Positions 14,842 through 59,304 of a DNA stretch of 64,000 nucleotides are shown here, piece by piece. Source of the DNA: a virus (lineage: Duplodnaviria; Caudoviricetes). Made by a program: the position numbers and the translations under genes. The notes under the pieces are model-generated. The model ran no database searches. It saw only the letters and a program-made list of their open reading frames with translations, and was not told where the DNA came from. The stretch lies in IMG/VR virus record IMGVR_UViG_3300032225_000686, one strand, 5' to 3'. Numbering within the stretch: position 1 is the stretch's first letter; each line of letters starts with the position of its first letter.

Positions 14842-16767
14842 ATGAGCGACTTCAATTTCCGTAAGCCACTATCCTCGCAGAAGAAGAACATCAACGAATC
14901 CCTCCGTCACATTAACAGGCTGTATAACAACACCCTGTCGGCAGGTAGAGTGGATGTCGTTAGCATGGAACTCAACGAGGCAGGAGAGAAGACTATTGGA
15001 AAGATTACCTTCAGTCCATACAAGGAAGGCAGTAGGTCGGTATGGATAGTCAAGGGAAAGGGCGGTCAGGAGATTGGGTTCATCACCATAGTGAAGAGTA
15101 CAGCCGTAACGACAGTACCCAATCAGTTGTACTTGGGCAGTCGCGGCGAGGGTAAGTTAGCACTCAACCTTTGGCCAGAGAAGGTTGGAACCCCACCCAC
15201 GGGCGGGTACACGCGGGCGTATGTGAAGTACAAGCCAAACCAAATGTTGTCAGCAGCAGCAAAGTGGATCATGGACAACCACAAGGAGTTGGTAGAAGAG
15301 GTTGTTGTTGATGAATCCAAGGAAGAACTAAAGGTTGTCAAGAAGGGCAACACAAAGACAGAGAAGAACAAGTCATCAGAGTTCAATGGGGACAAGCGTG
15401 GCATGAACCGCTTCGTTGAAGAGGATGAGGTGGAGGAAGTTGAGGATGTTGAGGAAGAGGTTACTGTAATCGGCATGAAGGAGAGTGTTGAACTCCAAGA
15501 AGCATCTTGGTCATCAAGTTCAGGAACTATTGACAAGAAGACAGTAGATTCATTCTTGGACGATCTAGAAAAGGCATACGAGAGGGGCGGCAAGAGAGCC
15601 AAGGTTGGTAATACTGATGGAACAGTAGAGGATTGGATGCAGGATTACAAGGACTGGTTCCGCCGTGCTCCCAAGAATCTTATGGACTATCTCAAGACAG
15701 AGATATCAAAGATCGTCAAGAAGGAATCACTAGGCACACACATGGCTACTTCAGAGGCATACGCACATCCTGACGAAAAAACTATAGGTTCATTCTATGA
15801 GAAGACGGGGAAGCACTTCTTTGAGTATAGAGTTTCAAAGGATTCTTGGGGTAAGAGCCACGGTCTACCTCATGAAGTCTGTGTCTCCCGTAAAGACCCG
15901 AGTAGCAAAGGTGATTGGAGATCTGCTAATGTCAAGGGAACTGTATGCTACATCGCTGTTGATGAAGATTCAGACGGTAAGCCTGTGATGGAGAAGTGGG
16001 AGATCAAGAGGCATGTCAAGTATGTGAAAGCAGAGGCAGTTGAAGTTGAGACTCAAGATGAAGACCTAAGCGAAGCATACATTAGTACAGACGCAATCAA
16101 GATAATCCGTGACGATCTCAAGAAGGAATTCCCCAAGTTCAAGTTCATGATTGCTAGAGAGCGCAACAGTTACTCCAGTCTTCGTGTAGCAATCGTTTCC
16201 GGTCCTGTTGCTTTTGCAACCAAGCACGATGGAACACCATTGCCGTTCGCAGACATCAATCACTACTACCCAATGAACTATAAGAACGGTGAGATTCTAA
16301 AGAAGATTCTTGAGACAATCAACAAGAAGAACTGGGATCGCAGCGACATTCAAACAGACTACTTTGATGTTGGTTTCTACTTGACTGTAACACAGGGCAA
16401 TCGTTCATATGGCATGACACAACGCCCATTCACACTAAATGGTGTTGCCGTAAAGAAGCCAACTCCCGTGCAGACACAGCAGAAGGTTAATGCTATAATC
16501 AAGAAGGTAATAAGCAGCAATCCCACCAAGAATGCAGTAACAGGAAAGACACACACCAAGTCTACTCCCGCAAACGCAGGCGGTCCTTCTGCTAGTCGTT
16601 ACGGAGTCTTTGAGGATGCTCAGGAAGTGAACGAGAAGTCACCTCCAACAGGTACGGCTCGCAAGTTCAGCAAAGACCCTGATGTGAAGGCTGCATTCAA
16701 GAAGAAGTATGGAGAGCGTTGGAAAGAGGTAATGTACGCTACCGCATGGAAGATGCACAACAAGTAA
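14842..16767 (+). CDS. multi-module late protein with LPD29-like domain
   Basis: modules separated by acidic linkers ending in L/IxE; IRDDLKKEFPKFKF...DIQTDYFDVGFY; C-terminal YGERWKEVMYATAWK. Confidence 0.6.
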   Translation: MSDFNFRKPLSSQKKNINESLRHINRLYNNTLSAGRVDVVSMELNEAGEKTIGKITFSPYKEGSRSVWIVKGKGGQEIGFITIVKSTAVTTVPNQLYLGSRGEGKLALNLWPEKVGTPPTGGYTRAYVKYKPNQMLSAAAKWIMDNHKELVEEVVVDESKEELKVVKKGNTKTEKNKSSEFNGDKRGMNRFVEEDEVEEVEDVEEEVTVIGMKESVELQEASWSSSSGTIDKKTVDSFLDDLEKAYERGGKRAKVGNTDGTVEDWMQDYKDWFRRAPKNLMDYLKTEISKIVKKESLGTHMATSEAYAHPDEKTIGSFYEKTGKHFFEYRVSKDSWGKSHGLPHEVCVSRKDPSSKGDWRSANVKGTVCYIAVDEDSDGKPVMEKWEIKRHVKYVKAEAVEVETQDEDLSEAYISTDAIKIIRDDLKKEFPKFKFMIARERNSYSSLRVAIVSGPVAFATKHDGTPLPFADINHYYPMNYKNGEILKKILETINKKNWDRSDIQTDYFDVGFYLTVTQGNRSYGMTQRPFTLNGVAVKKPTPVQTQQKVNAIIKKVISSNPTKNAVTGKTHTKSTPANAGGPSASRYGVFEDAQEVNEKSPPTGTARKFSKDPDVKAAFKKKYGERWKEVMYATAWKMHNK

Positions 16768-16777
16768 GGAGAAACAA

Positions 16778-17005
16778 ATGGCTAGAAAGAAGTTGGTTAG
16801 CATAGCAGTCACTCCCGAATACTTCCTACATTTCTTTCCCGTAGGAACAGTCATTGACAGACCCGGCCTTCCTCTACTGAAGGTCTCTGATGCTGCCCCT
16901 ATGTTGGATGGCAACATCTCTGTTCAGTTTGAAGTCTCAAACAGCATGACCCGAGCGAAGCACACATTCGGTGGCACGAACGGGGAAAACGGCATTCCAT
17001 TTTGA
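16778..17005 (+). CDS. hypothetical protein
   Basis: AAGGAG RBS. Confidence 0.5.
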   Translation: MARKKLVSIAVTPEYFLHFFPVGTVIDRPGLPLLKVSDAAPMLDGNISVQFEVSNSMTRAKHTFGGTNGENGIPF

Positions 17006-17415
17006 AGTCGTTTAGCCAACATCTTGTAGAACAGGATGCGGCTCCAAAACCCCGTGGCGAGTATTTCGTCAGTCGTTTTAATATTAGCGGAACTGTTGTG
17101 AGTGCTGTCGCTGTATACGAAAGACCCACCAAGAACTACAAGTATAAAACTAAAGTTTGGAGATGGCGGGTTCGTATAAAGACGAGTGAAGGATGGATGC
17201 TGATGGGCTATATCGGCAATGGACAACGACAGGAAGAACTGCCTCCGCTTCGTGTTGGAGATGTTGTGGAGATTAGAGACCTTGTTTTGTCTAGAGTCAC
17301 GGGTGGAGATTGGGCGCAACGAAACAAGGTAATCGGCAAACCTCTTGACTATCGTTCTAACTTGTTTTCTCGTCAACTATATGGCAAGATCAAAAGAACC
17401 TCAACCTCCGTATGA
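17002..17415 (+). CDS. putative internal head protein
   Basis: TTG start, KSFSQHLVE. Confidence 0.5.
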   Translation: MKSFSQHLVEQDAAPKPRGEYFVSRFNISGTVVSAVAVYERPTKNYKYKTKVWRWRVRIKTSEGWMLMGYIGNGQRQEELPPLRVGDVVEIRDLVLSRVTGGDWAQRNKVIGKPLDYRSNLFSRQLYGKIKRTSTSV

Positions 17416-17852
17416 AATCGTTCAAGCAACTAAAGTGGGATTTGGGAGAAGCCAAGAAGCAGGATGCTGTTGAGGCTATTGACCGTTCTGCCAATGTTGT
17501 AGTTCGTCCTGCTGACCTACGCCACAAGACCCCCGGCGTAACAGTCATGGTACGCAAGCACAAAAAGCACAAGAGGGGCGAAGAGGCTTACGACTGGACT
17601 CTCCGAGAGCCTAATAGCAATCGCAACTATTATGGGACTCTGAGGAAGAACAAGGGTAAAAAGAGTGGTGGATGGATTGCAATGGCTACCGATTCCAAGA
17701 AAAAAGAAAAGACAGTTATCAAGGATACCCACGGAGATTCCATGAAGGCTGTCAAAAAGGCATACAAAGCCATAGCCAAAGCCACAGGGTCCACCGCCTT
17801 GGGTCTACCACTAATCGCTAGAGGAAATGCGAAATATAGACCCTTGACTTGA
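17412..17852 (+). CDS. basic putative internal head protein
   Basis: MKSFKQLKWDLGE; Lys-rich. Confidence 0.5.
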   Translation: MKSFKQLKWDLGEAKKQDAVEAIDRSANVVVRPADLRHKTPGVTVMVRKHKKHKRGEEAYDWTLREPNSNRNYYGTLRKNKGKKSGGWIAMATDSKKKEKTVIKDTHGDSMKAVKKAYKAIAKATGSTALGLPLIARGNAKYRPLT

Positions 17853-18144: not shown

Positions 18145-18416
18145 TGAAGACTGCAATGACACGCGATGATTACAAGTTTAAACTTCGCAAGGGTATCTGT
18201 GAGATCACCTTCACCAAGAAGGACGGATCGGAGCGAGTGATGCGTTGCACCCTCGCGCAGGCGCACATGCCCGTGCGTGAGTACGAGAAGGACTCTGCGG
18301 AGCCTAAGACTCCACGCAAGGTCAACCTCAACACCCTCGCTGTTTGGGATTTGGACAAGGAGGCGTGGCGAGCATTCAACTTGGACAGCGTGAAAAATTT
18401 CAAAAACGCTGTCTGA
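18144..18416 (+). CDS. SH3/WYL_2-like (DUF2693-type) protein
   Basis: FTKKDGSERVMRCTL...VWDLDKEAWRAF. Confidence 0.8.
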   Translation: MKTAMTRDDYKFKLRKGICEITFTKKDGSERVMRCTLAQAHMPVREYEKDSAEPKTPRKVNLNTLAVWDLDKEAWRAFNLDSVKNFKNAV

Positions 18417-18422
18417 TCCCCT

Positions 18423-18496
18423 GTTCCCGTAACTCAGTTGGATAGAGTAGTTGCCTTCTAAGCAACAAGTCACAGGTTCGAATCCTGTCGGGAACG
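18423..18496 (+). tRNA. tRNA-Arg(TCT)
   Basis: cloverleaf, anticodon arm GTTGC-CTTCTAA-GCAAC. Confidence 0.95.
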
Positions 18497-18499
18497 CTC

Positions 18500-18571
18500 G
18501 CCTCCGTAACTCAATGGTAGAGTAGCCGACTTTTAATCGGTAAGTTACAGGTTCAAGTCCTGTCGGGGGCA
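18500..18571 (+). tRNA. tRNA-Lys(TTT)
   Basis: GCCGA-CTTTTAA-TCGGT. Confidence 0.95.
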
Positions 18572-18610
18572 CTAAATACAAGCACCCATCTCTTGAAAGG
18601 AGATTACATT

Positions 18611-18976
18611 ATGGACTCACTTCTTTACGGTATCCTCGGTCTTTCACTCGCAACCAATCTCGTAACTTTCATTGGCTCAATCGCTACCAATTCCAAGCGT
18701 CGGGATGAAGAGAATCAGCGAACTCTCTCTACTGTACGCGACGAACTCATCAATCGTATCAATGAGGTTGATCGTCGTGTTGACGGAGAGGTTAGCCTAC
18801 TTCACAACTCAATTCAGAGTGAGGTAAATGGCCTCACTAGCAAGATTGAGGAACTGGATCGTACCCTTACTTCCATGATTGACAACTTGGAAGAAGAGGT
18901 CTACAATAGTCAGGATCGTTTCTACGAGATTGCAGAGGCGGAAACTGCTTGCTGCAAGGCAAAGAAGCGGAACTGA
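18611..18976 (+). CDS. N-terminal TM plus coiled-coil protein
   Basis: late promoter, AAAGGAG RBS, heptads. Confidence 0.6.
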   Translation: MDSLLYGILGLSLATNLVTFIGSIATNSKRRDEENQRTLSTVRDELINRINEVDRRVDGEVSLLHNSIQSEVNGLTSKIEELDRTLTSMIDNLEEEVYNSQDRFYEIAEAETACCKAKKRN

Positions 18977-19022
18977 TAAAGGGATCGCCATCCCTTACAA
19001 CTTTAACATAAGGAGAAAACAA

Positions 19023-19232
19023 ATGGCAAAGTTTGAATCGGGCACATGCCCTGTTACTGGTGGCTGCGATAAGTTGAACTGCCTTCTCAGCAAGGTTGGC
19101 ATCAACCGTAGCCTTCTCGTCACTTTGGCCCTTCTTCCGTTCGCTTGGAACGGAGCCGTGTGGCTTAAGAATGCTGCCGTTGCCATCGTTCATGTAGTGG
19201 CAGGACTATTCGGCAATAGCCCCGTCGCTTGA
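19023..19232 (+). CDS. small membrane protein with Cys-rich N-terminus
   Basis: AAGGAG RBS; MAKFESGTCPVTGGC. Confidence 0.55.
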   Translation: MAKFESGTCPVTGGCDKLNCLLSKVGINRSLLVTLALLPFAWNGAVWLKNAAVAIVHVVAGLFGNSPVA

Positions 19233-19262
19233 TGTGACGGGATAATTGTGCAGGGATGCACC

Positions 19263-19333
19263 TGCCCGATGGTGTAACGGTAGCACAAGAGACTTTGGTT
19301 CTCTTTGTCCTAGTTCGAATCTAGGTCGGGCAA
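19263..19333 (+). tRNA. tRNA-Gln(TTG)
   Basis: U1-A72; AGAGA-CTTTGGT-TCTCT. Confidence 0.93.
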
Positions 19334-19347
19334 TTTTGGAGGTACTA

Positions 19348-19554
19348 ATGGGAAGCAACTTCTATCCAACTGATGATAGCGGTAATGAGATACGAGACCC
19401 TGAAACGGTCAAAAAGTATCATCATGCCATCATGTTGTTTGGCATGAAGTTTAGTGAGTATGTGAAGGAGATGGATCCTGACCTTTGGAAGAGAGCCGCA
19501 GACTACGCTGCTTCATTCACAAAGGTTGATGGAATAGAATTCATGGGCCGATAG
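19348..19554 (+). CDS. hypothetical protein; stop overlaps tRNA-Ala 5' end
   Basis: GGAGG RBS. Confidence 0.55.
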   Translation: MGSNFYPTDDSGNEIRDPETVKKYHHAIMLFGMKFSEYVKEMDPDLWKRAADYAASFTKVDGIEFMGR

Positions 19555-19616
19555 TTCAACGGGAGAACAATGCCTTTGCAAGGCATGGGTTGGAGGTTCG
19601 AATCCTCTTCGGTCCA
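19545..19616 (+). tRNA. tRNA-Ala(TGC)
   Basis: G3:U70; ATGCC-TTTGCAA-GGCAT. Confidence 0.93.
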
Positions 19617-19631
19617 CTACAGGAGGTTAGC

Positions 19632-19841
19632 ATGACAAGCATGAACTCGTACACGCCCGGACACGGGTACAAAGAAGGCTACAATGATCGCATGAATGGT
19701 CTAGCAGATCGTTCTATCACCCACGCCACCACAGAAGTGTTTTGGATGGAGTACCGTCAGGGGTATATGCAAGCCGAAAGAAATATCATTGAGAAGGCTC
19801 GTCATGAAGTTAATGAGAGCCGTAGATTCTTGTCGGAATGA
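19632..19841 (+). CDS. hypothetical protein
   Basis: AGGAGG RBS; GYKEGY/YRQGY repeats. Confidence 0.55.
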   Translation: MTSMNSYTPGHGYKEGYNDRMNGLADRSITHATTEVFWMEYRQGYMQAERNIIEKARHEVNESRRFLSE

Positions 19842-19848
19842 ATTTTAA

Positions 19849-19937
19849 GGACAGGTGGCAGAGCGGTTTAATGCGGCGGTCTTGAAAACCGCTGAAGGGT
19901 GAATGCCCTTCCGAGGGTTCGAATCCTTCCCTGTCCG
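19849..19937 (+). tRNA. tRNA-Ser(TGA)
   Basis: long variable arm; GCGGT-CTTGAAA-ACCGC. Confidence 0.95.
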
Positions 19938-19942
19938 CTTTA

Positions 19943-20025
19943 GCGTGGGTTCCGGAGTGGTCAAACGGGACAGACTGTAAATCTGTTGGCTTTCGTCTTC
20001 GTAGGTTCGAATCCTACCCCACGCA
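19943..20025 (+). tRNA. tRNA-Tyr(GTA)
   Basis: ACAGA-CTGTAAA-TCTGT; variable arm. Confidence 0.95.
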
Positions 20026-20029
20026 CTTC

Positions 20030-20933: not shown

Positions 20934-21986
20934 ATGAAGATTGAAGAAGACATCAAGTTGGATTTCGCAGATGTGCTGATTCGCCCAAAGCGAAGCAATC
21001 TTGAGAGCCGAAGCAAGGTTGATCTAAACCGCACATTCAAGTTCACTTTGCCTAAAGGCGAAGAGACATGGACAGGCATTCCTCTTGTAGCGGCAAACAT
21101 GGACTCTACGGGAACTATACCTATGGCTAAAGCCTTGTCCAAGTGGGAGGCTATGGGTGCGGTACACAAGCATGTTCCGATTCGTGAGTGGAAGGAAGCC
21201 AACATTCATGATTGGTTGCCCAACGCAATCTCATGCAACATCATCTACACGATGGGTATGGGAGACAGCAGCAGCAACATGAAGGAGATGCTAAAGGCAC
21301 AAGAGGTTCTTGGTATGTACCCACAGATCAAGTTCATCTGTATTGATGTTGCCAACGGATACACGCAGAAGTTCGTAAACTTTGTTAGCAGTATTCGTGG
21401 CTTCTTCCCAAACCATATCATCATTGCAGGTAATGTAGTCACCCGAGAAATGACGGAGGCATTAATTCTCGCAGGAGCCAACATTGTCAAGATTGGTATT
21501 GGACCCGGCTCTGTATGCACCACGCGAAAGGTAGCGGGCGTTGGATATCCGCAACTATCCGCAATCATGGAGTGTGCTGATGCTGCTCACGGTCTTGGTG
21601 GATTTGTGATGGCTGATGGAGGATGCACCTGCCCCGGAGATGTTGCAAAGGCATATGGTGCAGGAGCAGACTTCGTTATGATCGGGGGTATGCTCGCGGG
21701 CGCGGACGAGGCAGCAGGAGAGATCACAGATAACGGTAAGGAGTTCTATGGCATGAGTTCTGCTGATGCTATGCAGAAGTACTCAGGCGGTGTTGCTACT
21801 TACCGTGCATCTGAAGGCAAGAAGGTTTATGTCAAGCCTAGCGGTCCTGCTGATGAAACGATCCAACATATACTTGGTGGAGTTCGTTCTGCTTGCACTT
21901 ATGTTGGTGCAGAGAGACTTAAGGACTTGCCAAAATGCACAACATTTGTGAGGGTTAATCGTCAACTCAACAATATCTTCACCTAA
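20934..21986 (+). CDS. guaC: GMP reductase
   Basis: KLDFADVLIRPKRS, AANMD, IDVANGY, GIGPGSVCTTR, YRASEGK. Confidence 0.95.
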   Translation: MKIEEDIKLDFADVLIRPKRSNLESRSKVDLNRTFKFTLPKGEETWTGIPLVAANMDSTGTIPMAKALSKWEAMGAVHKHVPIREWKEANIHDWLPNAISCNIIYTMGMGDSSSNMKEMLKAQEVLGMYPQIKFICIDVANGYTQKFVNFVSSIRGFFPNHIIIAGNVVTREMTEALILAGANIVKIGIGPGSVCTTRKVAGVGYPQLSAIMECADAAHGLGGFVMADGGCTCPGDVAKAYGAGADFVMIGGMLAGADEAAGEITDNGKEFYGMSSADAMQKYSGGVATYRASEGKKVYVKPSGPADETIQHILGGVRSACTYVGAERLKDLPKCTTFVRVNRQLNNIFT

Positions 21987-23628: not shown

Positions 23629-23814
23629 ATGGAAACCATCACAACCACATCCCTCATCATCTCTCTACTGTCCGCACTAACAGCAGGTGCTTTCAAGTTG
23701 CACAATTGGTCATACTCTCGCGGGTACGCGCACGGGCAACACGCGGGATTTAGCCAAGGCTTGTGGAAGGCTCATGAACGAAATAACCGAAAGAAGACCT
23801 TGACACAGGTCTGA
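23629..23814 (+). CDS. small membrane-anchored protein
   Basis: hydrophobic N-terminus; GY..G...GF repeat. Confidence 0.5.
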   Translation: METITTTSLIISLLSALTAGAFKLHNWSYSRGYAHGQHAGFSQGLWKAHERNNRKKTLTQV

Positions 23815-26145: not shown

Positions 26146-26997
26146 ATGCTAAGACCGAGGTGTTTGGTCATGGCGGGCGTTCTAACGCTCGCAACCGTGC
26201 TCACAGCAGGACAAGTATCCTGCCATTCATCAGCAAATTGCGATTGCAATGGCTACAATCAACAGGTGGTAGAGAAAGTGGTGGGTGCTAATGCAGTAGT
26301 CCACTATGGAGGAAGTCCTCTTGGTTCTGGTATTGCATATCGCAAGAATGGTAAGTTGTATGTGCTAACAGCAGCACATGTGATAGAAGACGAACAGGAA
26401 GTAAAGAGTAAGTATTGGTTCTGCCCGCAAAACTTTGTGGAGATAGACGATACACCATCTCTTCAAGTATGCCCTGAAAATAAGCCAAGTCAGGACAAGA
26501 CATGGGGAACCAAGAAGATAGAGGTCACTCTCTTTGCAGGAGAATACGAGTCTCCAATTTCTACAGAGACTTGCAAGTTAGTATTCAACGATCCCGAGTA
26601 TGATCTATCAATACTAGAGGTGGAGCAAGAGAAGCCACTTACTCCACTCGTAAAGGGATGCCTCTTCGATTACAATATCCCGCGCATGGGTGTGCCCGTA
26701 TACATGATGGGCAATCCTGCTGCGGATTACATGACTATCACCCGAGGAATAATCGGCAACAATCATAGGAGCCGTGGATCACTATCTGACCATTTGCCTT
26801 TCTTCTACCAGACAGATGCAGATGGTGCTCCCGGCTCTTCAGGCGGCGGTCTCTATCGTGCGGACACGGGCGCGTGTGTGGGCGTAGTGGTAATGTTGAA
26901 TTGTAGAAATTTCCAAGTCTACTGCGTACCGGCCATGTTCTTGAGAGAGACACTAATCAGGCACAATCAAGTAGATTTGTTGCCACCAAGCACTTGA
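26146..26997 (+). CDS. secreted trypsin-like serine protease
   Basis: signal-like N-terminus; TAAH, DLSIL, PGSSGG triad. Confidence 0.85.
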   Translation: MLRPRCLVMAGVLTLATVLTAGQVSCHSSANCDCNGYNQQVVEKVVGANAVVHYGGSPLGSGIAYRKNGKLYVLTAAHVIEDEQEVKSKYWFCPQNFVEIDDTPSLQVCPENKPSQDKTWGTKKIEVTLFAGEYESPISTETCKLVFNDPEYDLSILEVEQEKPLTPLVKGCLFDYNIPRMGVPVYMMGNPAADYMTITRGIIGNNHRSRGSLSDHLPFFYQTDADGAPGSSGGGLYRADTGACVGVVVMLNCRNFQVYCVPAMFLRETLIRHNQVDLLPPST

Positions 26998-27750: not shown

Positions 27751-28666
27751 AAAGTACCGACCTTCCAAGGTCGCAGACTGCATCCTCCCCGCAAGCATCA
27801 AGAAGACCTTTGAGGATATCGTCCGCACGGGCGAAGTCCCAAACATGATTCTTGCAGGTGGTGCAGGGTGCGGTAAGACCACGGTCGCGGTTGCGATGTG
27901 CAAGGAGTTGGGTCTAGACTACCTGTTCATCAATGCGAGCGAGGACAATGGTATTGATGTTCTCCGTACACGCATACGCAACTTTGCGTCCACGGTCTCT
28001 TTGAGTGGCGGCAAGAAGGTAGTCATCCTTGATGAGGCAGACTATCTGAATCCGCAGTCTACACAGCCCGCTCTTCGTGGTGCTATTGAAGAGTTTGCTA
28101 ACAACTGTAGATTCGTTCTTACCTGCAACTTCAAGACCCGTATCATTGAGCCTCTGCACTCTCGCTGCACGGTGATTGACTTCAAGATTCCTGCAAAGGA
28201 GAAGCCAACACTAGCAGGACAGTTCTTGGATAGAGCCAAGATGATTATGGACTCCGAGGGTGTGCAGTACGAAGAGAAAGCAGTAGCAGAACTAATCATT
28301 CGCTACTATCCTGACTTCAGAAAGACTCTGAACACCATTCAGCGTCATGCCCTGTCTGGAGCAATCAACGCTTCTGTCCTTTCTAATGGTAAGGACATTG
28401 AGATAGATGCTCTCATCAAGGCTATGAAGTCAAAGTCATTCCCTGAGATTCGTAAGTGGGTTGTGGATAACTCTGATAGAGAACCCGCTTCCCTATTTAG
28501 GAAAATCTATGAGGGAATACAGGATAAGGTTGAGATGGGATCAATCCCACAGGCTGTTCTCATCCTTGGAGAGTATCAGTACAAGTCTGCCTTTGTTGCA
28601 GATCAGGAACTAAACCTTGTAGCATGTTGTTTGATGCTTGCTTCAGACTGTACCTTCACTAAATAA
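27734..28666 (+). CDS. gp44: clamp loader large subunit
   Basis: VEKYRP, GGAGCGKT, DEAD, LHSRC. Confidence 0.95.
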   Translation: MLPLVEKYRPSKVADCILPASIKKTFEDIVRTGEVPNMILAGGAGCGKTTVAVAMCKELGLDYLFINASEDNGIDVLRTRIRNFASTVSLSGGKKVVILDEADYLNPQSTQPALRGAIEEFANNCRFVLTCNFKTRIIEPLHSRCTVIDFKIPAKEKPTLAGQFLDRAKMIMDSEGVQYEEKAVAELIIRYYPDFRKTLNTIQRHALSGAINASVLSNGKDIEIDALIKAMKSKSFPEIRKWVVDNSDREPASLFRKIYEGIQDKVEMGSIPQAVLILGEYQYKSAFVADQELNLVACCLMLASDCTFTK

Positions 28667-31618: not shown

Positions 31619-32795
31619 AGGTGATTGCATACAGGGAATGAAGACGCTACCCGATGGGTGCGTACATACCATAGTTACCTCTCCTCCCTATTATGGTCTT
31701 CGTGACTATGATGGTGGAGAGGCGGAAATCGGAGGCGAGGAAACTCCCGATGACTATGTGAAGAAGATGGTTGAGGTGTTCAGGGAAGCCAAGCGTATTC
31801 TCCGAGATGACGGTACGCTGTGGCTCAACCTTGGTGACACCTACGCTACTACGAGTGGAGGCATGGAGCAGTTGCGTAAGTTGGGGGATCAGACCCCAAA
31901 CTACGGAGCGGTGAAGTACTCCGAAGGATACAAGGGAGTTTCGCAGAAGGGCAAGGACGGAGCAAAGAAGAGCGGTCTCAAGCACAAGGACTTGATTGGT
32001 ATTCCGTGGCGAGTGGCTCTTGCTCTACAGGCTGATGGTTGGTATCTGCGTCAGGACATCATTTGGAACAAGCCAAATCCTATGCCTGAGAGTGTGACCG
32101 ACCGTTGCACCAAGTCGCATGAGTATATCTTCCTGCTGACGAAGCAGCCAAAGTATTACTACGATAACGAAGCCATCAAGGAGCCTGCTACTACTTCCCC
32201 TGCTTATAGAGACAAGCATGGTGAGGGCTATCATGCAGACTATCCCAACGGTGATAGATTCTCACCCGGCGAGCGTGTATGGGGAGCGGACGGTAAGCGG
32301 AACAAGCGTTCGGTGTGGACGGTGACTACCAAGGCGTACAAGGGTGCACACTTCGCTACCTATCCAAAAGACTTGATTGAGCCTTGCGTCCTCGCGGGTA
32401 CGAGCGAGCATGGATGTTGCTGCAAGTGTGGTACACCTTGGATTCGTAAGGTTGAGACTGCTCGCTCTTTTGAAAGCGGTTCTGGAAAAAGCGATAACCT
32501 GCCAGAAGGGAAAAACGGAAAGAATCTTCAAGGCGGCGGGGAAACCAAAGATATTCGCAGAGGTCCGGTCTGCCATACTAAAACTATTGGGTGGGAATCT
32601 GCTTGTTCTTGTGAAGCAGAAGTTGTTCCCTGCACGGTGTTTGATCCGTTCACAGGCAGCGGCACAACTGCTGTAGTTGCTTTGAATCACGGGCGCAAGT
32701 ACATCGGCACAGAGTTGAACCCCGAGTACATCAAGTTGGCCGAGGGCAGGATCGCAGAAGAAGCACCCCTAACACTATTGGATTTCCTAGCATGA
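31590..32795 (+). CDS. beta-class N4C/N6A DNA methyltransferase
   Basis: TSPPY before DPFTGSGTT; Cys-rich insert. Confidence 0.92.
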   Translation: MEDSRYQIIEGDCIQGMKTLPDGCVHTIVTSPPYYGLRDYDGGEAEIGGEETPDDYVKKMVEVFREAKRILRDDGTLWLNLGDTYATTSGGMEQLRKLGDQTPNYGAVKYSEGYKGVSQKGKDGAKKSGLKHKDLIGIPWRVALALQADGWYLRQDIIWNKPNPMPESVTDRCTKSHEYIFLLTKQPKYYYDNEAIKEPATTSPAYRDKHGEGYHADYPNGDRFSPGERVWGADGKRNKRSVWTVTTKAYKGAHFATYPKDLIEPCVLAGTSEHGCCCKCGTPWIRKVETARSFESGSGKSDNLPEGKNGKNLQGGGETKDIRRGPVCHTKTIGWESACSCEAEVVPCTVFDPFTGSGTTAVVALNHGRKYIGTELNPEYIKLAEGRIAEEAPLTLLDFLA

Positions 32796-34509: not shown

Positions 34510-37052
34510 ACTTCTACACCCATGTAGCCGTAAAAGGCTCCAACATCCTCTTCCGTGGCTACGAGAACGGCAAGAAGGTTTCATACAAGGCAGACTTCGC
34601 ACCAACCCTGTTCGTCCCCGCAAAGGGCAAGCAAACAGATTGGTCTACTCTTGATGGTAAGCCTGTTGAGCCATTTCAGCCCGGCAGTATCCGCGATTGT
34701 AACGAGTTCATCAAGGAGTACCGTGGTGTGAGCGGCTTTGAGATATACGGCAACTCCGAGTGGGTCTATCAATACATCGGAAAGCAGTACCCCAATGATG
34801 TTGAGTATGATCCTTCTCTGCTTCGTGTTGGTTTCATAGACATTGAGACCGAGAGCGAAGATGGATTCCCCAACATCAAAACTGCTACTGAGAGAGTCAA
34901 CGCCATTACCCTGAAGGTCAAAGGCAAGACATTGGTGTTTGGTTTGGGTAAGTTCGCCTTGCCCGATGCCAAGTGCTTTCAGTATGATGACGAAGCCAAG
35001 ATGTTGCAGGAGTTCCTTGCGGCATGGGAGGCTCTAGACATAGACATCATTACGGGATGGAACATCAACTTCTTTGACATTCCCTACCTTGTCAATCGCA
35101 TCACACGACTGTTCGGTGAGAAAGAAGCCATGCGTCTTTCCCCGTGGAGAGACATTCGCTCCCGAACAGTAGTGGTCATGAACAAGGAGAATGAGGTCTA
35201 TGACTTGTTGGGGATAGCAACCCTCGACTACTTCGACCTGTACCGCAAGTTCACCTATGTGAATCAGGAGTCCTATGCCCTGAATCATATCGCTTGGGTG
35301 GAGTTGGGCGAGCGTAAGAAGCACTATGAGGGAACCCTATCTGATTTCTACAAGAGGGACTTTCAGAAGTTCATTGAGTACAATCAGCACGATGTTGCTC
35401 TCGTAGAGATGCTTGAGAACAAGTTGAAGTTGCTTGAACTCTCCTTGGCTCTAGCCTACTCTGCCAAGGTGAATCTGAATGATGTCTTCTCGCAAGTCCG
35501 TACATGGGATGCTATCATCTACCATCACCTGACCAAGAAGAAAATTGCCATCCCGATGAAGAAGGGGGACGCAGAGAAGGAGGACAAGTTTGAGGGAGCC
35601 TATGTGAAGGAGCCTCTTGTGGGCAGTCACGATTGGGTGGTCTCGTTTGACTTGGACTCGCTGTACCCCCACCTAATCATGCAGTACAACCTTAGCCCCG
35701 ATACCAAGGTTGTAGACCGACAGGTTGAGCCTCTAGCCTACACAGTAGAAGACTTCCTCACGCGGGCACACGCGGGCGCGGACACGCACACGCGGGCGTA
35801 CATGGAGAAGATGTTTGACAAGGGCTACTGCGTTGCTGCTAACTGCGTTTGCTTCACCAAGAGCAAGCAGGGCTTCTTGCCTGAACTCATGGAGACCATG
35901 TATGAGGATCGCAAGGCATTCAAGAAGAAGATGCTTGAAGCCAAAGCAGCACTAAAGCAGTTGGGGGAAGATGCTCCCGCCGATAAGGTCAAGGAGTTGA
36001 AACTTGACATCACCAAGTATCACAACTTCCAGTTGGTTCGTAAGATTCAGTTGAACTCTGCGTTTGGTGCTTGCGGCAATCAGTACTTCCGCTATTACGA
36101 TCCACAGATAGCCGAAGCCATTACCTATTCCGGTCAGTTGTCGATTCGTTGGATTGAGACCGCTTTGAACAAGTTCCTAAACAAGACACTCAAGACCAAC
36201 AAGACAGATTACATCATTGCGAGCGATACGGACTCTGTGTACATCCGTCTAGGTAACTTGGTCAAGCAGATCATGCCCAACGAGACCGATCCACAAAAGA
36301 TCACCAAGTTCTTGAACCGTTTCTGCAACGAGGTCTTGCAGCCACTCATCAACAAGGAGTTTGCCCAACTAGCAGAGCAGCAGCAGGCTTACTCACAGAA
36401 GATGAACATGAAGCGAGAGGGTATTGCTAGCCGTGGTATATGGACAGGCAAGAAGCACTACATCCTTGCAATATGGATGGGCGAGGACAATGTTCTGTTG
36501 CAGAAGCCCGAGATCAAGATGATGGGTATTGAGACTGCCAAGAGCAGCACACCGTTCATCGTGCGCGAGGCTTTGAAGAAGGCTATCAGTATCATCATCA
36601 ACGGAACCCGCGAGGAGTTGGTATCGTTTGTTGGCTCTTTCAAGGATACTTTCAATAGTAGCCCCGTGGAGGAAGTTGCATTCCCGCGTGGGTGCAACAA
36701 CCTGAAGGAATACAAAGACCCGACGATGATCTACAAGAAGTCAACTCCTATTGCTGTGAAGGGAGCCTTGATTTATAACCATTTTCTCCGCGAGAAGAAC
36801 CTGACCAAGAAGTACCCTCTGATAGGTGATGGCGAGAAGGTCAAGTTCATCTATCTGCGAATGCCCAATCCCGTGAAGGACAAGGTTATTTCGTTTAGCG
36901 GCAAGATTCCCAAGGAGTTTGGGCTAGAGGCGAAATACATAGACTATGACGCGCAATTCGACAAGTCTTTTGTAGTGCCTCTCACAACTATTACAAATCT
37001 GATCGGTTGGAACATCTTTGAAATGAGCACCTTGGAGGATCTATTGTCATGA
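34506..37052 (+). CDS. gp43: family B DNA polymerase
   Basis: DIET exo, SFDLDSLYP, KIQLNSAFG, ASDTDS, C-terminal LEDL clamp-binding tail. Confidence 0.97.
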   Translation: MNFYTHVAVKGSNILFRGYENGKKVSYKADFAPTLFVPAKGKQTDWSTLDGKPVEPFQPGSIRDCNEFIKEYRGVSGFEIYGNSEWVYQYIGKQYPNDVEYDPSLLRVGFIDIETESEDGFPNIKTATERVNAITLKVKGKTLVFGLGKFALPDAKCFQYDDEAKMLQEFLAAWEALDIDIITGWNINFFDIPYLVNRITRLFGEKEAMRLSPWRDIRSRTVVVMNKENEVYDLLGIATLDYFDLYRKFTYVNQESYALNHIAWVELGERKKHYEGTLSDFYKRDFQKFIEYNQHDVALVEMLENKLKLLELSLALAYSAKVNLNDVFSQVRTWDAIIYHHLTKKKIAIPMKKGDAEKEDKFEGAYVKEPLVGSHDWVVSFDLDSLYPHLIMQYNLSPDTKVVDRQVEPLAYTVEDFLTRAHAGADTHTRAYMEKMFDKGYCVAANCVCFTKSKQGFLPELMETMYEDRKAFKKKMLEAKAALKQLGEDAPADKVKELKLDITKYHNFQLVRKIQLNSAFGACGNQYFRYYDPQIAEAITYSGQLSIRWIETALNKFLNKTLKTNKTDYIIASDTDSVYIRLGNLVKQIMPNETDPQKITKFLNRFCNEVLQPLINKEFAQLAEQQQAYSQKMNMKREGIASRGIWTGKKHYILAIWMGEDNVLLQKPEIKMMGIETAKSSTPFIVREALKKAISIIINGTREELVSFVGSFKDTFNSSPVEEVAFPRGCNNLKEYKDPTMIYKKSTPIAVKGALIYNHFLREKNLTKKYPLIGDGEKVKFIYLRMPNPVKDKVISFSGKIPKEFGLEAKYIDYDAQFDKSFVVPLTTITNLIGWNIFEMSTLEDLLS

Positions 37053-37227: not shown

Positions 37228-38280
37228 ATGAGCGACTTTCTAAAGAGCATGATTCGTGCGTCGGGTAACGAGTGGGCAACCATAGCAGAGGACGGAGTTG
37301 ATGGTGATGTTGCGGGCTTTGTTGATACAGGCTCCTACATCTTCAACGCTCTTCTATCGGGTTCACTAAAGGGCGGTATCGCAAGCAACAAGATTCTTGG
37401 TATCGCGGGCGAGAGTGCGACAGGCAAGACCTACTTCGCTCTCGGTATCGCAGCACAGTTCTTGAAGGACAATCCCGATGGAGCGATCCTCTACTTTGAC
37501 AGCGAGCAGGCTGTTACAAGTGAGATGATCTCGGGCAGAGGTCTTGATCCCTCTCGCGTAGCCGTATTCCCTGTGGCTACCGTTGAGCAGTTCCGCCATC
37601 AGTTGCTACAGATCATAGACAACTACGGCAAGTTGGACGAGAAGAAGCGTAAGCCCTTCTTTGTGGTATTGGACTCGCTAGGCATGTTGAGCACTAGCAA
37701 GGAAACTAACGACACACTTGAAGGCAAGGAAGTTCGTGACATGACCCGTTCGCAGGTCATCAAGGGAACCTTCAGAGTTCTAACCATGAAGTTGGGTCTG
37801 CACAAGATTCCTATGGTTGTGACTAACCACACCTATGATGTCGTGGGTGCATATGTTCCGACCAAGGAGATGGGTGGTGGTAGTGGTCTGAAGTACGCTG
37901 CGTCTACCATCGTCTACCTGTCCAAGAAGAAGCACAAGGTAGATGATGAAGTTGTTGGTAACATCATCCATTGCAAGTTGTACAAGGCTCGTTTCACCCG
38001 CGAGAACAAGATGGTGGATGTTCTGCTTACCTTTGACAAGGGTCTTGATAGATACTATGGTCTAGTTGACCTTGCTCTCTCGCAGGGCGTGTTCAAGAAG
38101 GTTTCCACCAAGATTGAACTACCTGATGGGACTACCGCCTTTGAGAGTCATATCAACAAGAACCCCACCAAGTTCTTCACCGAAGAAGTAATGAAGTCCC
38201 TTGAGGTAGCAGCCGCAAAGGAATTCAAGTACGGTAGCGATAGTGAAGTAGAAGTAGAACAGGAGACCGAGAATGTCTGA
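37228..38280 (+). CDS. uvsX: RecA-like recombinase
   Basis: [26 protein letters not shown]. Confidence 0.95.
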
Positions 38281-45951: not shown

Positions 45952-47382
45952 ATGGTAGCCGACAGAACCGAACTAATCATCCTCCGTTCCCTACTCCATA
46001 ACGAAGAGTACGGTCGGAAGGTTCTCCCTTTTCTTCAGCCTGAGTACTTCACCGAACGCGACGAGCGTGTGGTGTTTGATGCTGTTGCAGAGTTCTTCAG
46101 CAAGTACAACAAGCCACCGAGCGTAGAGACCCTTCTGATTGACTTGAGCAAGAAGGACGGGCTAAACGAAGCCGAGTTCAAGAGTGTGCAGACGGTCATC
46201 CGTTCTCTAGCAGACAACAACACAATTGATGATAAGTGGCTCCTTGATACCACCGAGACCTTCTGTAAGGACAAGGCGGTATACAACGCCATCATGGAGT
46301 CCATTCAGATCATTGATGGTAAGAGCCAACGGACTGCAAACGCAATCCCCGAGGTTCTGTCAAAGGCTCTGTCTGTTTCTTTTGATACCCACATCGGTCA
46401 CGACTTTATTGAGGATGCGGACAAGCGATACGACTTCTACCACACAGTAGAAAAGCGTATTCCGTTTGACCTTGACCTGATGAACAAGATCACCAACAAC
46501 GGAACGCCATACAAGACGCTGAATGTGTGCCTCGCGGGCACGGGTGTCGGCAAGTCTCTGTTCCTCTGCCACCATGCTGCGAACTGTCTCATGCAGAGCA
46601 AGAATGTACTCTACATCACCTGTGAGATGGCAGAGGAGCGTATTGCAGAACGCATAGACGCTAACCTTATGGATATCTCTTTGGATGATCTCAAGTCTCT
46701 ACCCAAGGACATCTATGACCGCAAGATCAAGCGGATCATGGATCAGACTACAGGCAAACTGATCGTGAAGGAGTACCCGACAGCAACAGCCAATGTGATG
46801 CACTTCAAGCATCTGTTGGATGAACTGCGACTCAAGAGAAACTTCAAGCCCGAGATCGTGTTTATTGACTACCTGAACATCTGTGCATCTAGTCGCTTCA
46901 AGGCAGGAGCAAATGTGAACTCCTACACCTATGTCAAGGCTATTGCAGAAGAACTTCGTGGTCTTGCTGTAGAGACAGGTGTCCCTATTTTCACCGCAAC
47001 CCAAACCAATCGTTCGGGCTTCTCTAGCACCGATGTTGAACTTACTGACACAAGCGAGTCCTTCGGTTTGCCACAGACAGCAGACTTCATGTTTGCCTTG
47101 GTCTCCACCGAAGAACTTGATGGGCTTGGTCAGATCATGGTGAAGCAGTTGAAGAACCGTTATGCCGATCCTGCCTCTAACCGACGATTCGTTATTGGTA
47201 TTGACCGCAGCAAGATGAAGTTGTTTGATCTTGACCCCTCTGCACAGAACAACATTATCCTAGAGGGGGGTCGGGGCAGTAAGGAGGAACAGGAAGAGGA
47301 TAAGGGAGGATTCAAGACTTTCCGTGAGCGTATGAATGACAAGTTCGACAAAAAGAAGCGGGATTTCGCGGATTGGTCTTGA
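45952..47382 (+). CDS. gp41: replicative DnaB-like helicase
   Basis: AGTGVGKS, EMAEERIAERIDAN, IDYLNI, QLKNRY. Confidence 0.96.
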   Translation: MVADRTELIILRSLLHNEEYGRKVLPFLQPEYFTERDERVVFDAVAEFFSKYNKPPSVETLLIDLSKKDGLNEAEFKSVQTVIRSLADNNTIDDKWLLDTTETFCKDKAVYNAIMESIQIIDGKSQRTANAIPEVLSKALSVSFDTHIGHDFIEDADKRYDFYHTVEKRIPFDLDLMNKITNNGTPYKTLNVCLAGTGVGKSLFLCHHAANCLMQSKNVLYITCEMAEERIAERIDANLMDISLDDLKSLPKDIYDRKIKRIMDQTTGKLIVKEYPTATANVMHFKHLLDELRLKRNFKPEIVFIDYLNICASSRFKAGANVNSYTYVKAIAEELRGLAVETGVPIFTATQTNRSGFSSTDVELTDTSESFGLPQTADFMFALVSTEELDGLGQIMVKQLKNRYADPASNRRFVIGIDRSKMKLFDLDPSAQNNIILEGGRGSKEEQEEDKGGFKTFRERMNDKFDKKKRDFADWS

Positions 47383-48651: not shown

Positions 48652-49896
48652 ATGCTCTCATTCACCAATTTTTTAAATCAGCCATGTAAGGTACTAGCCG
48701 AGGAGGGTAAACTCACCCACCTTGCACACCTTGAGGACGGTATGTTTTTGGATGGGGTGGATGGTCTAAACGACTCCATCGACATATTGAACAAGGTTGT
48801 AGATACTCTCACGCCCTCCCGCGTGGGCGCGCCCGCGCCCGTGAGCGTGACTACTAAATGGGACGGAGCACCCGCTGTTGTTACGGGTACAGACCCAAGC
48901 AACAAGAAGTTCTTTGTGGCTACCAAGTCAGCCTTCAACCCAAAGAACCCGATACTAAACTACAGCATAGAAGACATCAAAAAGAACTACCCCGATTCAG
49001 GAGTAGCCGAGAAGTTGATTGATGCCTTCACCTACCTGAAGCCCATGAACATCAAGGGAGTGTTTCAGGGAGACTTGTTATACACGACTACGGGAAGGAA
49101 AGAGGAAACCATAGACGGTATCCGCTATATCACTTTCCGTCCAAACACCATCGTTTATGCTGTTCCTGTGGATGGTCCTGTTGGGGTGTCTATCAAAGCA
49201 TCCAAGATAGGTATTGTTTTCCATACTAAGTACACAGGCTCAACCATAGCAACAATGACTGCTTCTCCTTTGGGTAACACCAAGGTAGGCAGTACATCTA
49301 CAGCAGTATGGTCAGTAGATCCAAAGATTCCTGCGTTGCCGAAGAACTCTCCCGTTCTGATGCAACCGCCCGAAGTCAAGTTGCTTAGTGAGTTGGTTAA
49401 GCAGATCAAGAGCAAAGGCAAAACGCTATCTGCTTTCCTCACAAACTTCTTGGCTAAAGAACCGGCAAAATACATCAGTCTATACATCAATTCAACAGTC
49501 AATACAGGAATCTCAAACCGTAATGCAAACGGTCTTGGTCTTTACATTAGAACAAGAGAGACCAAGGAGATGGATAAGTTGAAGACGGAGAAGGCAAAGG
49601 CACAAAGGCAAGAGAAGTTGGATGGCATGATTGCTTATCTCAACGCTTACGCCAAGCAGATTGATGGACTCTTTGAACTGCACTCTTTGATTTCGCAGGC
49701 AAAGATGGTCCTTGTAAACAAACTAGCCATGACTAATGTGGTTGACACATTCAATATAACCGACAAGGGTTATGTGAAGACTGCGCCTGAAGGATTCGTT
49801 GCTGTATGCGGCGATACCTGCAAGATGGTCAAGTTGGTAGACAGAAATCAGTTCTCGCGTATAAACGCAACATCGAAGAAGGAGTGGAGCAAGTGA
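48652..49896 (+). CDS. ligase-like nucleotidyltransferase (DUF6267-type)
   Basis: THLAHLED, TKWDGAPA, QGD, PEGFV, KLVDR..FS. Confidence 0.75.
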   Translation: MLSFTNFLNQPCKVLAEEGKLTHLAHLEDGMFLDGVDGLNDSIDILNKVVDTLTPSRVGAPAPVSVTTKWDGAPAVVTGTDPSNKKFFVATKSAFNPKNPILNYSIEDIKKNYPDSGVAEKLIDAFTYLKPMNIKGVFQGDLLYTTTGRKEETIDGIRYITFRPNTIVYAVPVDGPVGVSIKASKIGIVFHTKYTGSTIATMTASPLGNTKVGSTSTAVWSVDPKIPALPKNSPVLMQPPEVKLLSELVKQIKSKGKTLSAFLTNFLAKEPAKYISLYINSTVNTGISNRNANGLGLYIRTRETKEMDKLKTEKAKAQRQEKLDGMIAYLNAYAKQIDGLFELHSLISQAKMVLVNKLAMTNVVDTFNITDKGYVKTAPEGFVAVCGDTCKMVKLVDRNQFSRINATSKKEWSK

Positions 49897-57147: not shown

Positions 57148-58182
57148 ATGGGCTTCCTTGAAATCAAGTACATCAATATGGTCTCCCCACGGCTGACTCG
57201 TTTTGTCTGGAAGAAGACTAACAATCTAGCCACATGCAGGTGTCCAATATGCGGAGACTCCAAGAGAAACCGAACCAAGACTCGCTTCTACTTCTACGAA
57301 AGGAAGGGTGGCTTCTATGTCAAGTGCCACAACTGTGATTATGGAACAACCCTCGCAAGATTCCTTGAGCAGTTTGACAGGGGACTCTACGACCAGTACA
57401 TCATGGAGAAGTACCGAAGTGGACTTGAAGGGCGCAACGAGCCAAAGCCTGACTTCAAGTTTGAACAACCACGATTCAATAAAGGAAGCGATAGCCAACA
57501 TAAGGGAGCAACGGATATCGGACTCCCTTCACTTGACTCGCTTCCGCAGGATCATCTTGCGGTAGAGTTTGTTCGTAGCCGCTTGATTCCAAGAGACAAG
57601 TGGGGGCTACTATACTACGCTGAACACTTCGGGGATTGGGCAAAGACCATAGACCCCGAGAAAGAGTTGGGCGATGAACCAAGACTCATCATACCTATCA
57701 TTCGCGGCGGTAAACTGATCGGGGCTAACTGCCGTGCCTTGGATAGCAGGCAGGGCAAGAACATTCGCTACATCACTCTACGCAAAGAGCAAGATGAAGA
57801 CCGCCTGTGGTTTGGTCTAGACAGATTGAATCCCAAAGAACAGGTGTTTGTGGTGGAGGGTCCGCTAGACTCTCTGTTCCTGCCGAATGCTGTGGCGATG
57901 TCGGGTCTTGGTAAATGTACCAACCTACCTAAAGAGTTGGGGGATTCGCCTATTTTTGCCTTGGACAACGAACCTAGAAACAAGGAATTGGTCAAGACGA
58001 TGAATGATCTGATTGCTATGGGCAGGTCTGTATGCTTTTGGCCTAGCAAGATAGTCCAAAAGGACATCAACGACATGGTTCTATCGGGTCTCGCGCCCGC
58101 CCGCGTGTGCGAGATGATAAAGGAAAACTCCTGCAAAGGACCGGCTGCTAAACTAAAAATGATGACTTGGAAACGCTGCTAA
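57148..58182 (+). CDS. gp61: DNA primase
   Basis: CPICGDS, CHNC, VEGPLDS, DNEPRN, KDINDM. Confidence 0.95.
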   Translation: MGFLEIKYINMVSPRLTRFVWKKTNNLATCRCPICGDSKRNRTKTRFYFYERKGGFYVKCHNCDYGTTLARFLEQFDRGLYDQYIMEKYRSGLEGRNEPKPDFKFEQPRFNKGSDSQHKGATDIGLPSLDSLPQDHLAVEFVRSRLIPRDKWGLLYYAEHFGDWAKTIDPEKELGDEPRLIIPIIRGGKLIGANCRALDSRQGKNIRYITLRKEQDEDRLWFGLDRLNPKEQVFVVEGPLDSLFLPNAVAMSGLGKCTNLPKELGDSPIFALDNEPRNKELVKTMNDLIAMGRSVCFWPSKIVQKDINDMVLSGLAPARVCEMIKENSCKGPAAKLKMMTWKRC

Positions 58183-58198
58183 AAGCCTAAATAGAGGT

Positions 58199-58579
58199 AT
58201 GAAGCGTTTCACAGAATTCCTGAAAGAGTCTTCGATAACTACTGATCGCCAAATGGTAAAGAAGTCTTACGGCTCTTTCTACGGTCAGGGGACTGCGTTC
58301 GTTTGGGTAGCAATGTCTGGTGGCAAGATTTACAAGACGGGCAAGATTGCCTCTGTAGATATTGCTGATGCCAAGGCGGTTGTTAGACAAATCGCCAAAG
58401 ACTTGCAGGCTCCGATTGATACCATGCGTATCATAGGACGCGACAACAAAGTTTTAGCAGATGTCAAGATCAGCAGCGAGGGACTAGCACAGAGCCACGG
58501 AGATATCGGTGACTTGGGGGATTTGGATAAGCCACTAGGAACGGGAAAGGCTAGGAAGGTAAAGAAGATCAAGACCTAA
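58199..58579 (+). CDS. putative internal head protein
   Basis: late promoter; MKRFTEFLKE. Confidence 0.6.
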   Translation: MKRFTEFLKESSITTDRQMVKKSYGSFYGQGTAFVWVAMSGGKIYKTGKIASVDIADAKAVVRQIAKDLQAPIDTMRIIGRDNKVLADVKISSEGLAQSHGDIGDLGDLDKPLGTGKARKVKKIKT

Positions 58580-58581
58580 TT

Positions 58582-59304
58582 ATGGAGAACCCTGTGAATA
58601 CAGATTACAAGATGGATAGCATGAGGATTGGTGTTCTAGACAAAGGCTTCGTACAATACATTTCGCACATGGGTGATGACCTGATGGTTGTCAATGCCGC
58701 CCGTGTGTCATTCAACAAAAAGTCTACTCAACTAACGGACAAGGATGCGAAGTTGATCTCGTATCTTGCCAAGCACAAGCATTGGACTCCGTTTGCTCAT
58801 CCGCAGATCACCTTGCACATCAAGGCTCCAATCTCCATTCGTACCCAATTGTTCAAGCACAAGCAGGGGTTTGTGGAGAATGAAGTAAGCCGCCGCTATG
58901 TAAAGGACGAACCAGATTACTACATTCCTGAATGGCGTTCTGCTCCAACCAACGGAGCCAAGCAAGGAAGTGAAGACTTTATAGATGATCTTGCAATAGA
59001 AGACTATGACCGAGCATACAATCGTTCGGCTATGGATGCTATTGATACCTACAACATGCTTCTAAAAGAGGGTGTGGCTCCCGAACAGGCTAGATTTGTT
59101 CTGCCTCAAGGCACATATACCGAGTGGTGGTGGACAGGAAGCCTAGCCGCATACGCCCGCGTGTATGCACTACGATCAGACCCCCATGCACAATGGGAAG
59201 TTAGGGAGTACGCAAAGGCTATCTCTGACCTGATTAAACCTCTGTTTCCTGTGGCTTGGGAGGCTCTTTGCCCACCCCTAAATACCTCTAATGGAGCAGT
59301 CTGA
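58582..59304 (+). CDS. thyX: FAD-dependent thymidylate synthase
   Basis: AARVS, HWTPF, NEVSRRY, EQAR.VLP, HAQWE. Confidence 0.95.

Follow-up and report, generated by a model that had tools for sequence, protein, structure and literature searches.

Bacterial sequences that pass from the B form to the left-handed Z form under supercoiling have been described as engineered inserts, incidental sites or promoter-proximal motifs (PMC13463272, PMC3343103), and the dinucleotide unit of the transition, the untwisting at its junctions and its energy cost have been set out (PMC3343103). In eukaryotes, flipons, known with the Z-alpha proteins ADAR1, ZBP1 and viral E3L, form a conserved Z-compatible structural code (PMC12607565, PMC12776410). 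A 2025 review describes noncanonical structures in bacteriophages as largely uncharted (PMC12607565), the main text of the other account does not contain the word phage (PMC12776410), and a search of the open-access literature, with most subscription journals outside its scope, found no selected intragenic Z-phased tracts in phages. Such tracts are reported here from the protein-coding genes of an uncultured T4-like phage, of whose genome a 64,000-nucleotide portion (IMG/VR record IMGVR_UViG_3300032225_000686; 46% GC), referred to below as the window, was analysed. Like the bacterial Z-formers, the tracts show anti/syn phase, a dominance of CG, CA/TG and GG/CC steps, and switching predicted within the cellular supercoiling range; unlike them, they are intragenic, remodel the protein, avoid restriction sites and, while under purifying selection, appear to have arisen, disappeared and changed place within a phage group. 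They share a conserved Z-compatible structural code with flipons, and differ in that no Z-alpha domain was found in five related records, in their non-promoter position and in not being simple (CG)n or (TG)n microsatellites.

Chi, KOPS, matS, DNA uptake sequences and cyanobacterial HIP1 are dispersed words, read by proteins and overprinted on genes. Like the tracts, they are encoded through synonymous codons and can bias amino-acid choice; they are, however, fixed words whose single copies are enriched and conserved, whereas in the phage tracts the phase stays and the words shift with restriction-site avoidance. The RPE elements of Rickettsia, palindromic insertions in coding sequence, likewise place extra GC-rich sequence in protein loops, but the phage tracts are not homologous copies, show no conserved hairpin and also arise by pure synonymous recoding of catalytic motifs.

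The Z score of a segment was obtained with our own script as the sum, over an in-phase run, of 2.7 minus the anti/syn B-to-Z cost of each dinucleotide. The window holds 13, 7 and 5 segments scoring at least 12, 15 and 18, respectively. Plain codon shuffles in which the proteins were kept gave about 2.5–3.6 segments at the lowest threshold, shuffles with restriction-site bans and the CG count held gave 2.4, 1.0 and 0.4 at the three thresholds, and shuffles keeping the proteins, the codon counts and all 256 4-mer counts gave 1.8, 0.9 and 0.3, with maxima of 4, 1 and 1 in 12 runs. The excess of tracts is real and beyond chance. Comparison with codon-shuffled controls had been proposed in an earlier note on this DNA, and its expectation was borne out (13 against 1.8 at the lowest threshold under the 4-mer-preserving null). 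All 15 stretches listed there were found at their coordinates, on the + strand and within reading frames, and most are strong. Two are in the range of the shuffles: a gp43 site at 36677..36696 (listed as 36683; score 9.5), kept in part in relatives, and one in the Walker A region of uvsX at 37404..37419 (8.4), which is not kept in the related record G007 and is probably background. The codons used are uncommon, as had been stated (GCG is 14% of Ala, ACG 12% of Thr, CGG 6% of Arg and GGG 11% of Gly codons). Rare-codon translational pausing was ruled out as an explanation, because it is unable to give a two-base phase and because common codons take part.

Selection of sequences by their score would be circular, and the key tests therefore relied on protein homology or a fixed anchor to place them. 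Judged in this way, the property conserved in the tracts is the dinucleotide phase and not the word CGCGGG. Near CGCGGG anchors, third positions that carry G or C are in phase in 28 of 53 cases at 1–6 bp, 20 of 41 at 7–12 bp and 14 of 37 at 13–18 bp, as against 10.2, 7.5 and 7.2 expected, and anti-phase positions are depleted; this test is independent of the energy table. Third positions neighbouring CGCG sites other than CGCGGG show little or no phase preference. Where C or G would each give one CG, nine codons make the in-phase choice and one the out-of-phase choice (p 0.011). The strongest tract of the window (35759..35804; score 31.3, 23 dinucleotides) fills a variable loop of the gp43 DNA polymerase. 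When this loop was located by its flanking residues in 10 sequences, all 102 CG steps fell in the same phase; the loop peptides differ freely, and their lengths of 12, 14, 18 or 28 codons are all even. The same loop is present in all relatives, so the tract, which in the earlier note had looked like a short in-frame insert, is not a fresh one. In the loop of a polysaccharide deacetylase, the CG steps of eight sequences are in phase 62:0. Over the homology-located loops, dinucleotides of lower Z cost are used more often (Spearman −0.78), and in 17 of the 18 loops a random synonymous coding of the peptide attains the observed score in fewer than 2% of trials.

The tracts are low-cost anti/syn runs of at least 8 bp in a single phase, as Z elements are, and by every sequence test run they behave as putative Z-DNA-forming elements. 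In agreement with the DNA-level code under selection that had been supposed, both their alphabet and their fixed two-base phase follow B-to-Z energetics. A genome-wide CG autocorrelation at even versus odd lags was without signal (difference z 1.1), because tracts account for under 1% of all nucleotides and CG is inflated in plain shuffles, and a parity test on CG-dense windows was weak (p ~0.07 in the window, 0.004 in G007 at k = 6). G007 is a 145-kb record (L159-L166) in which many frameshift-type errors make gene calls unreliable, and it was therefore used for substitutions only.

Purifying selection on the tract DNA is seen at G/C-ending four-fold sites, where comparison with eight relatives gave 30 changes against 62.6 expected, the comparisons not being independent. 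Counted once per site, 14 of 58 tract sites changed, as against 608 of 1501 (Fisher p 0.013), which is the reduced synonymous variation that the earlier note had suggested looking for. In the gp41 helicase, the Walker A tract (46524..46552) scores 10.3, and ~11–13 in most relatives of the clade. Its third positions alternate between C and G, being C,G,C,G,C,G,C in most clade members even at 35–44% GC, and the tract is missing in ~90 outgroup sequences of almost identical peptide. Upstream of Walker A, the strongest synonymous conservation of the gene is at 46447-46467 (p 0.014), a segment that is not Z-like.

Mutation alone would have to act through slippage and through copying at microhomologies within CG-rich runs, where mutation rates are locally low and protein loops tolerant, and is an improbable source of this pattern. 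Frame-constrained slippage of a two-base repeat would give the observed length changes of 6, 12, 18 and 48 bp, the tracts of some GC-rich relatives are tandem Pro-Thr/Pro-Glu linkers, and CA, TG, GG and CC are one step from CG. Against these stand the repeat-free tracts held through synonymous choices in invariant motifs (gp41 Walker A, gp44, guaC and thyX) and the persistence of phase over a gp43 clade ~0.5 protein changes per site deep, in which four-fold sites are 42–46% identical. In addition, GG/CC exceed AG/CT (44 to 25), and new loci gain tracts with amino-acid changes.

The tracts also turn over in position. Several are lineage-specific, which indicates that they are gained anew and not merely inherited: in the lineage of the window they arrived with changed peptides in the WYL gene, the DUF6267 gene and gp61, and with mainly synonymous changes in guaC. 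Within one supported gp43 clade (FastTree, midpoint root), the loop tract is carried by 15 of the 19 members and seems to have been lost in G004 and in L012/L197/L199. The latter three, which lie inside the tract-bearing clade, are without the gp43, Walker A and DUF6267 tracts, show no strong tract in the 32 kb examined, and are the best natural control for a comparison of gene content. Among sisters lacking the gp43 tract, some have a strong tract in the loop of the polysaccharide-deacetylase gene right after gp43, and others have one in a lysozyme gene 2 kb before it. A strong tract thus remains within ~2 kb of gp43 while switching genes, which suits a signal acting over kilobases. The strongest tracts of G007 (L163:12323-12407) and G004 (L179:17321-17418) are in or just after a RuvC-like gene, and a 92-bp RuvC-adjacent version differs among close relatives by indels of 6 and 12 bp and by changes that almost always exchange one low-cost step for another. 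Both of these tracts lie near a junction of + strand and − strand genes. About 0.8 kb after the RuvC-like gene, a small basic protein has a Pro-Thr/Pro-Glu/Pro-Ala linker that is wholly Z-phased, with scores of 29–69 and no CGCG at any of the loci (L462:3661, L429:3633, L469:3668, L434:3657, L417:3662).

Such positions could also be expected if Z-DNA were formed and used as a mark for a structure-specific phage or host protein, for instance as UvsX pairing sites in recombination-dependent replication or as entry points for packaging or a nuclease at B–Z junctions. We consider this unlikely, though it shares the phase evidence with a torsional role. In its favour, several lineages have their strongest tracts within or next to gp43 and the gene of the RuvC-like resolvase, the gp43, Walker A and DUF6267 tracts are all missing from L012/L197/L199, as though some common need or partner had disappeared, and a tract of the same style lies upstream of the terminase operon in an unrelated phage (L277). 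The lineage free of tracts is, however, also the AT-richest of the clade (36–42% GC), and no Z-alpha domain (PF02295) was found in the five related records, two of them near complete. Unrelated phage contigs with the same alphabet, in tracts of up to ~340 bp (L274:6607-6950, L275:3375, L276:104-340, L277:5930-6030), include one tract right after a primase gene besides the one near the terminase operon; because the search pattern was itself modelled on this style, these contigs are not a random sample.

The choice of words within the tracts appears to be set by restriction-site avoidance. The words AGCT, ACGT, CCWGG, ACGCGT, CCGCGG, TCGCGA, TGCGCA, CGTACG and GCATGC are absent from the window, as are TGATCA, CCATGG, CTGCAG, CACGAG and CGATCG, among others, and GCGC is at one third of expectation. 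AGCT and ACGT are likewise missing in most close relatives, and this broad avoidance indicates a host with many restriction systems. CACGCT does not occur on the + strand, where its complement occurs 12 times (0 versus 6 in G005), a skew that is probably chance because it is not seen in G007, G002 or G004. The palindromic six-mers built around CGCG are thus unavailable and GCGC is little used; among the CGCG contexts that can still be used, CACGCGGG and its complement have the lowest cost. In all six lineages with an observed/expected CGCG ratio below 0.4 the tracts are CGCG-free, and the same deacetylase loop exists in CGCG-free and CGCG-using versions, each in a single phase. Minimisation of Z energy with restriction bans and a GCGC penalty recovered 13 of 14 gp43 codons and gave 9 cores, against 11 observed and 6 without the penalty; the mean tract energy is 345, compared with 307–332 for the optimum and 483 for random coding. 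In sequence terms CGCGGG is a by-product of Z energetics under restriction avoidance, being dominant here and absent in CGCG-avoiding phages because the words are whatever host restriction sites and the protein allow.

The count of CGCGGG plus its complement is raised over the whole window (23 versus 15.0±2.6 in the strictest null), as the earlier note had anticipated, but its proposal of CGCGGG as the core signal did not hold, since isolated copies are at chance and the tracts of CGCG-avoiding relatives are equally long without the word. Outside tracts the counts under the 4-mer-preserving null are 9 versus 13.5 for CGCGGG, 27 versus 26.4 for CACGGG and 48 versus 43.9 for CGGGCR, and only CACGGGC is raised (13 versus 6.6±2.2). 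Isolated CGGGCR (15/48) and CACGGG (10/26) are conserved no better than background (0.36), and CGCGGG is not conserved across related genomes. Nor are the tracts regularly spaced, a property that had been proposed for testing (coefficient of variation of the gaps 0.99, versus 0.89 under random placement). These results bear on the possibility that the tracts are arrays of degenerate B-form sites for a protein with a two-base-periodic preference, which would coat, condense or partition the DNA, Z-compatibility being incidental. Six-mers that recur in the tracts of many lineages while (CG)3 is nearly absent, the excess of CACGGGC, cores 10 bp apart in the gp43 tract and the asymmetry of the coding strand would all suit such arrays. 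Nevertheless, no word is common to all lineages and content follows CGCG restriction avoidance; the isolated six-mers behave as background, some cores are instead 14 or 20 bp apart, and an unbroken phase over at least 40 dinucleotides is hard to obtain from separate sites. We regard site arrays as doubtful, a little more so than a mark on Z-DNA.

The explanation we favour, with somewhat less than even confidence, is that the tracts are selected B-to-Z switching elements within coding DNA, most likely supercoil buffers. Each holds one anti/syn phase over 20–50 bp (up to ~130 bp in relatives), encoded by synonymous codons in conserved enzymes and by recoded peptides in tolerant loops, linkers and termini. 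Negative supercoiling would flip the tract from the B to the left-handed Z form, so that it could act as a torsional buffer, absorbing the negative supercoils generated by heavy transcription of the replication module. In a two-state estimate for a 4.4-kb domain, a simple model that uses the ZHUNT-type cost table, the critical supercoiling predicted for the window tracts is −0.045 to −0.055 and that for relatives' tracts −0.041 to −0.049, as compared with −0.038 for (CG)8 and −0.049 for (TG)12; the transition is thus predicted at physiological negative supercoiling. Eleven segments reach −0.05, against 1.7 in the shuffles. By the two-state formula the gp43 tract would absorb ~9 turns, switching at moderately high supercoiling. 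The moderate threshold, the high capacity, the mid-gene position and the conservation of neighbourhood rather than of position would all fit a buffer; Z formation in vivo and this role are both inferred. Inside the cell, linear T4 DNA is reported to be under torsional tension (Sinden and Pettijohn 1982, by the title given in PMC4396842). In addition, gp55.2 of T4 inhibits host topoisomerase I (PMC4396842), and supercoiling would on both grounds matter to such phages. Torsional buffering is a leading hypothesis for bacterial Z-DNA (PMC13463272).

Tract length bears on the choice between a buffer and a mark. Longer tracts have more capacity with a threshold that is hardly lower in the estimate, and both growth to 80–130 bp and the shunning of (CG)3 would add capacity while not lowering the threshold. 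This disfavours a reader, which a short low-threshold site would serve. It is with little confidence that we entertain left-handed DNA as a functional, evolvable second code within the genes, which would be read by an undescribed phage or host protein other than a Z-alpha one and would couple supercoiling to recombination-dependent replication or packaging.

Several points weigh against the buffer explanation and the underlying Z energetics. The cost table is of the Ho et al. 1986/ZHUNT type and was not taken from the published program; the Z form of the tracts is a prediction from sequence, and direct evidence in vivo of regulation by bacterial Z-DNA is itself limited (PMC13463272). In within-gene scans for constraint and rare codons, the gp41 Walker A window ranked first or second but was not significant (p 0.75 and 0.42), the alignments including one frameshifted row and members that had lost the tract; since the within-gene maximum did not single out that window, the Walker A point rests on the clade contrast. 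Under any of three optimisation schemes, 40–43 of 136 tract codons are off the optimum, and GCGC use in tracts does not follow genome GCGC avoidance (rho 0.13). (CG)3 occurs once, where 22 are expected, the six-mers CGGGCG (29 versus 11.6) and CACGGG (27 versus 5.2) are over-used, and the coding strand has G above T at first positions and CA far above TG, neither of which is predicted by Z energetics alone. All of these biases may stem from what the proteins tolerate (Gly, Ala, His, Thr, Pro), from restriction and from the instability of repeats, and a reader protein could be another cause. Finally, the complete outgroup phage G010 has no type II topoisomerase subunit and yet shows no strong tract in 21 kb around gp41 (L155). 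Such a subunit was not found in G004 (98% complete) or in G007 either, which would suit a buffer; its absence, considered as a cause of the tracts, does not discriminate and, as G010 lacks both, is not sufficient for them.

Hairpins in the mRNA or DNA cruciforms were also considered. The tract at 48806..48849 (score 23.7), near the start of the DUF6267 gene, was gained in the lineage of the window with a changed peptide and folds better than shuffles (z −3.4), its stem being kept in L082; the gp41 and gp61 tracts also fold better (z −2.0). The tracts at 15192 (z +1.3), 18246 (z −0.2) and gp43 (z −0.9) fold no better, and covariation is absent in the consensus folds (1 of 7 pairs in the gp43 loop, 0 of 33 in the ruvC-adjacent tract). 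Changes in G007 at gp61 and thyX disrupt predicted pairs and yet reduce Z cost, and Rfam matches are to tRNAs only. As a general rule, hairpins are very unlikely and largely refuted; for 48806 a hairpin is plausible as well.

The remaining tracts are spread over genes of different kinds, with no strong tract at 1–15 kb of the window. The tract at 15192..15225 (18.6), in a gene at 14842-16767 coding for a 641-residue LPD29-domain protein, is kept in G005 and G007, and that at 18246..18287 (22.3), in a WYL_2-fold gene, is without CGCGGG and is missing in the orthologues of G002, G008 and G004. The tract at 19636..19671 (13.3), in a short gene inside the tRNA cluster, is weaker in relatives (~8); the tract at 21683..21710 (13.3), in the GMP reductase gene guaC, is made mostly of synonymous choices and does not occur in G002 and G008; and the one at 23711..23747 (13.7), whose final CGCGGG is out of phase, belongs to a short conserved gene preceded by two tRNAs. 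The long open reading frames at 19646 and 23711 overlap tRNAs, and the tract-bearing peptides there are conserved in relatives. A trypsin-like protease gene has two tracts, at 26679..26706 (15.2) and, without CGCGGG, at 26857..26886 (18.9). One in the gp44 clamp loader (27965..27994; 12.3), also without CGCGGG, had not been listed before. The others are in a DNA methyltransferase gene (32385..32430; 13.9), near the end of the gp61 primase gene (58090..58113; 15.4), where it is lineage-specific, and in thyX (59148..59169; 14.1), with scores of 12–15 at the same place in G004 and G007. A phage origin module, in which alternating tracts adjoin an AT-rich unwinding element in a gap between genes, was rejected, as the flanks are not AT-richer than the genome (0.50–0.53 versus 0.54) and the tracts are intragenic.

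The window contains gp45, gp44, gp43, uvsX, gp41, gp61, thyX, guaC, regA, a methyltransferase gene, many glycosyltransferase genes, 15 tRNA genes and a SAM lyase-family gene at 22549-23154. Coding is on the + strand almost throughout, so that transcription in one direction, as had been assumed, holds for the window; near-complete relatives have genes in blocks on both strands. The 15 tRNA genes are clustered at 18423-24910 with short open reading frames between them, and three tracts are in or beside the cluster. A sequence search with the open reading frame at 23386-23814, which overlaps tRNAs, gave no matches. Blocks of glycosyltransferase and sugar-nucleotide genes at 33057-34509 and 38273-45914 flank gp43–uvsX, vary among close relatives and are without a strong tract. 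By gp43, the closest cultured relatives are cyanophages (~49% identity), binned genomes hold only distant relatives (~51% identity or less), and closely related phages are known from metagenomes only.

Whether Z-DNA has a selected function in bacteria and their viruses is a long-standing question with scant direct in vivo evidence (PMC13463272, PMC12607565). Selection in these phages was apparently of sufficient strength for rare codons to become fixed in a Walker A motif and for protein loops to be recast. Among natural variants, the CGCG-free and CGCG-using versions of one loop differ in word but not in phase, and sister lineages differ in whether a tract is present; such pairs are ready for comparison in supercoiling assays with short cloned pieces of DNA, for which phage culture is unnecessary. 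If a Z code is indeed read by a protein, it would be the first example of selected signalling by Z-DNA among prokaryotic viruses. In phage proteins, the make-up of some low-complexity Ala/His/Thr/Gly/Pro loops may reflect the needs of the DNA rather than those of the protein.

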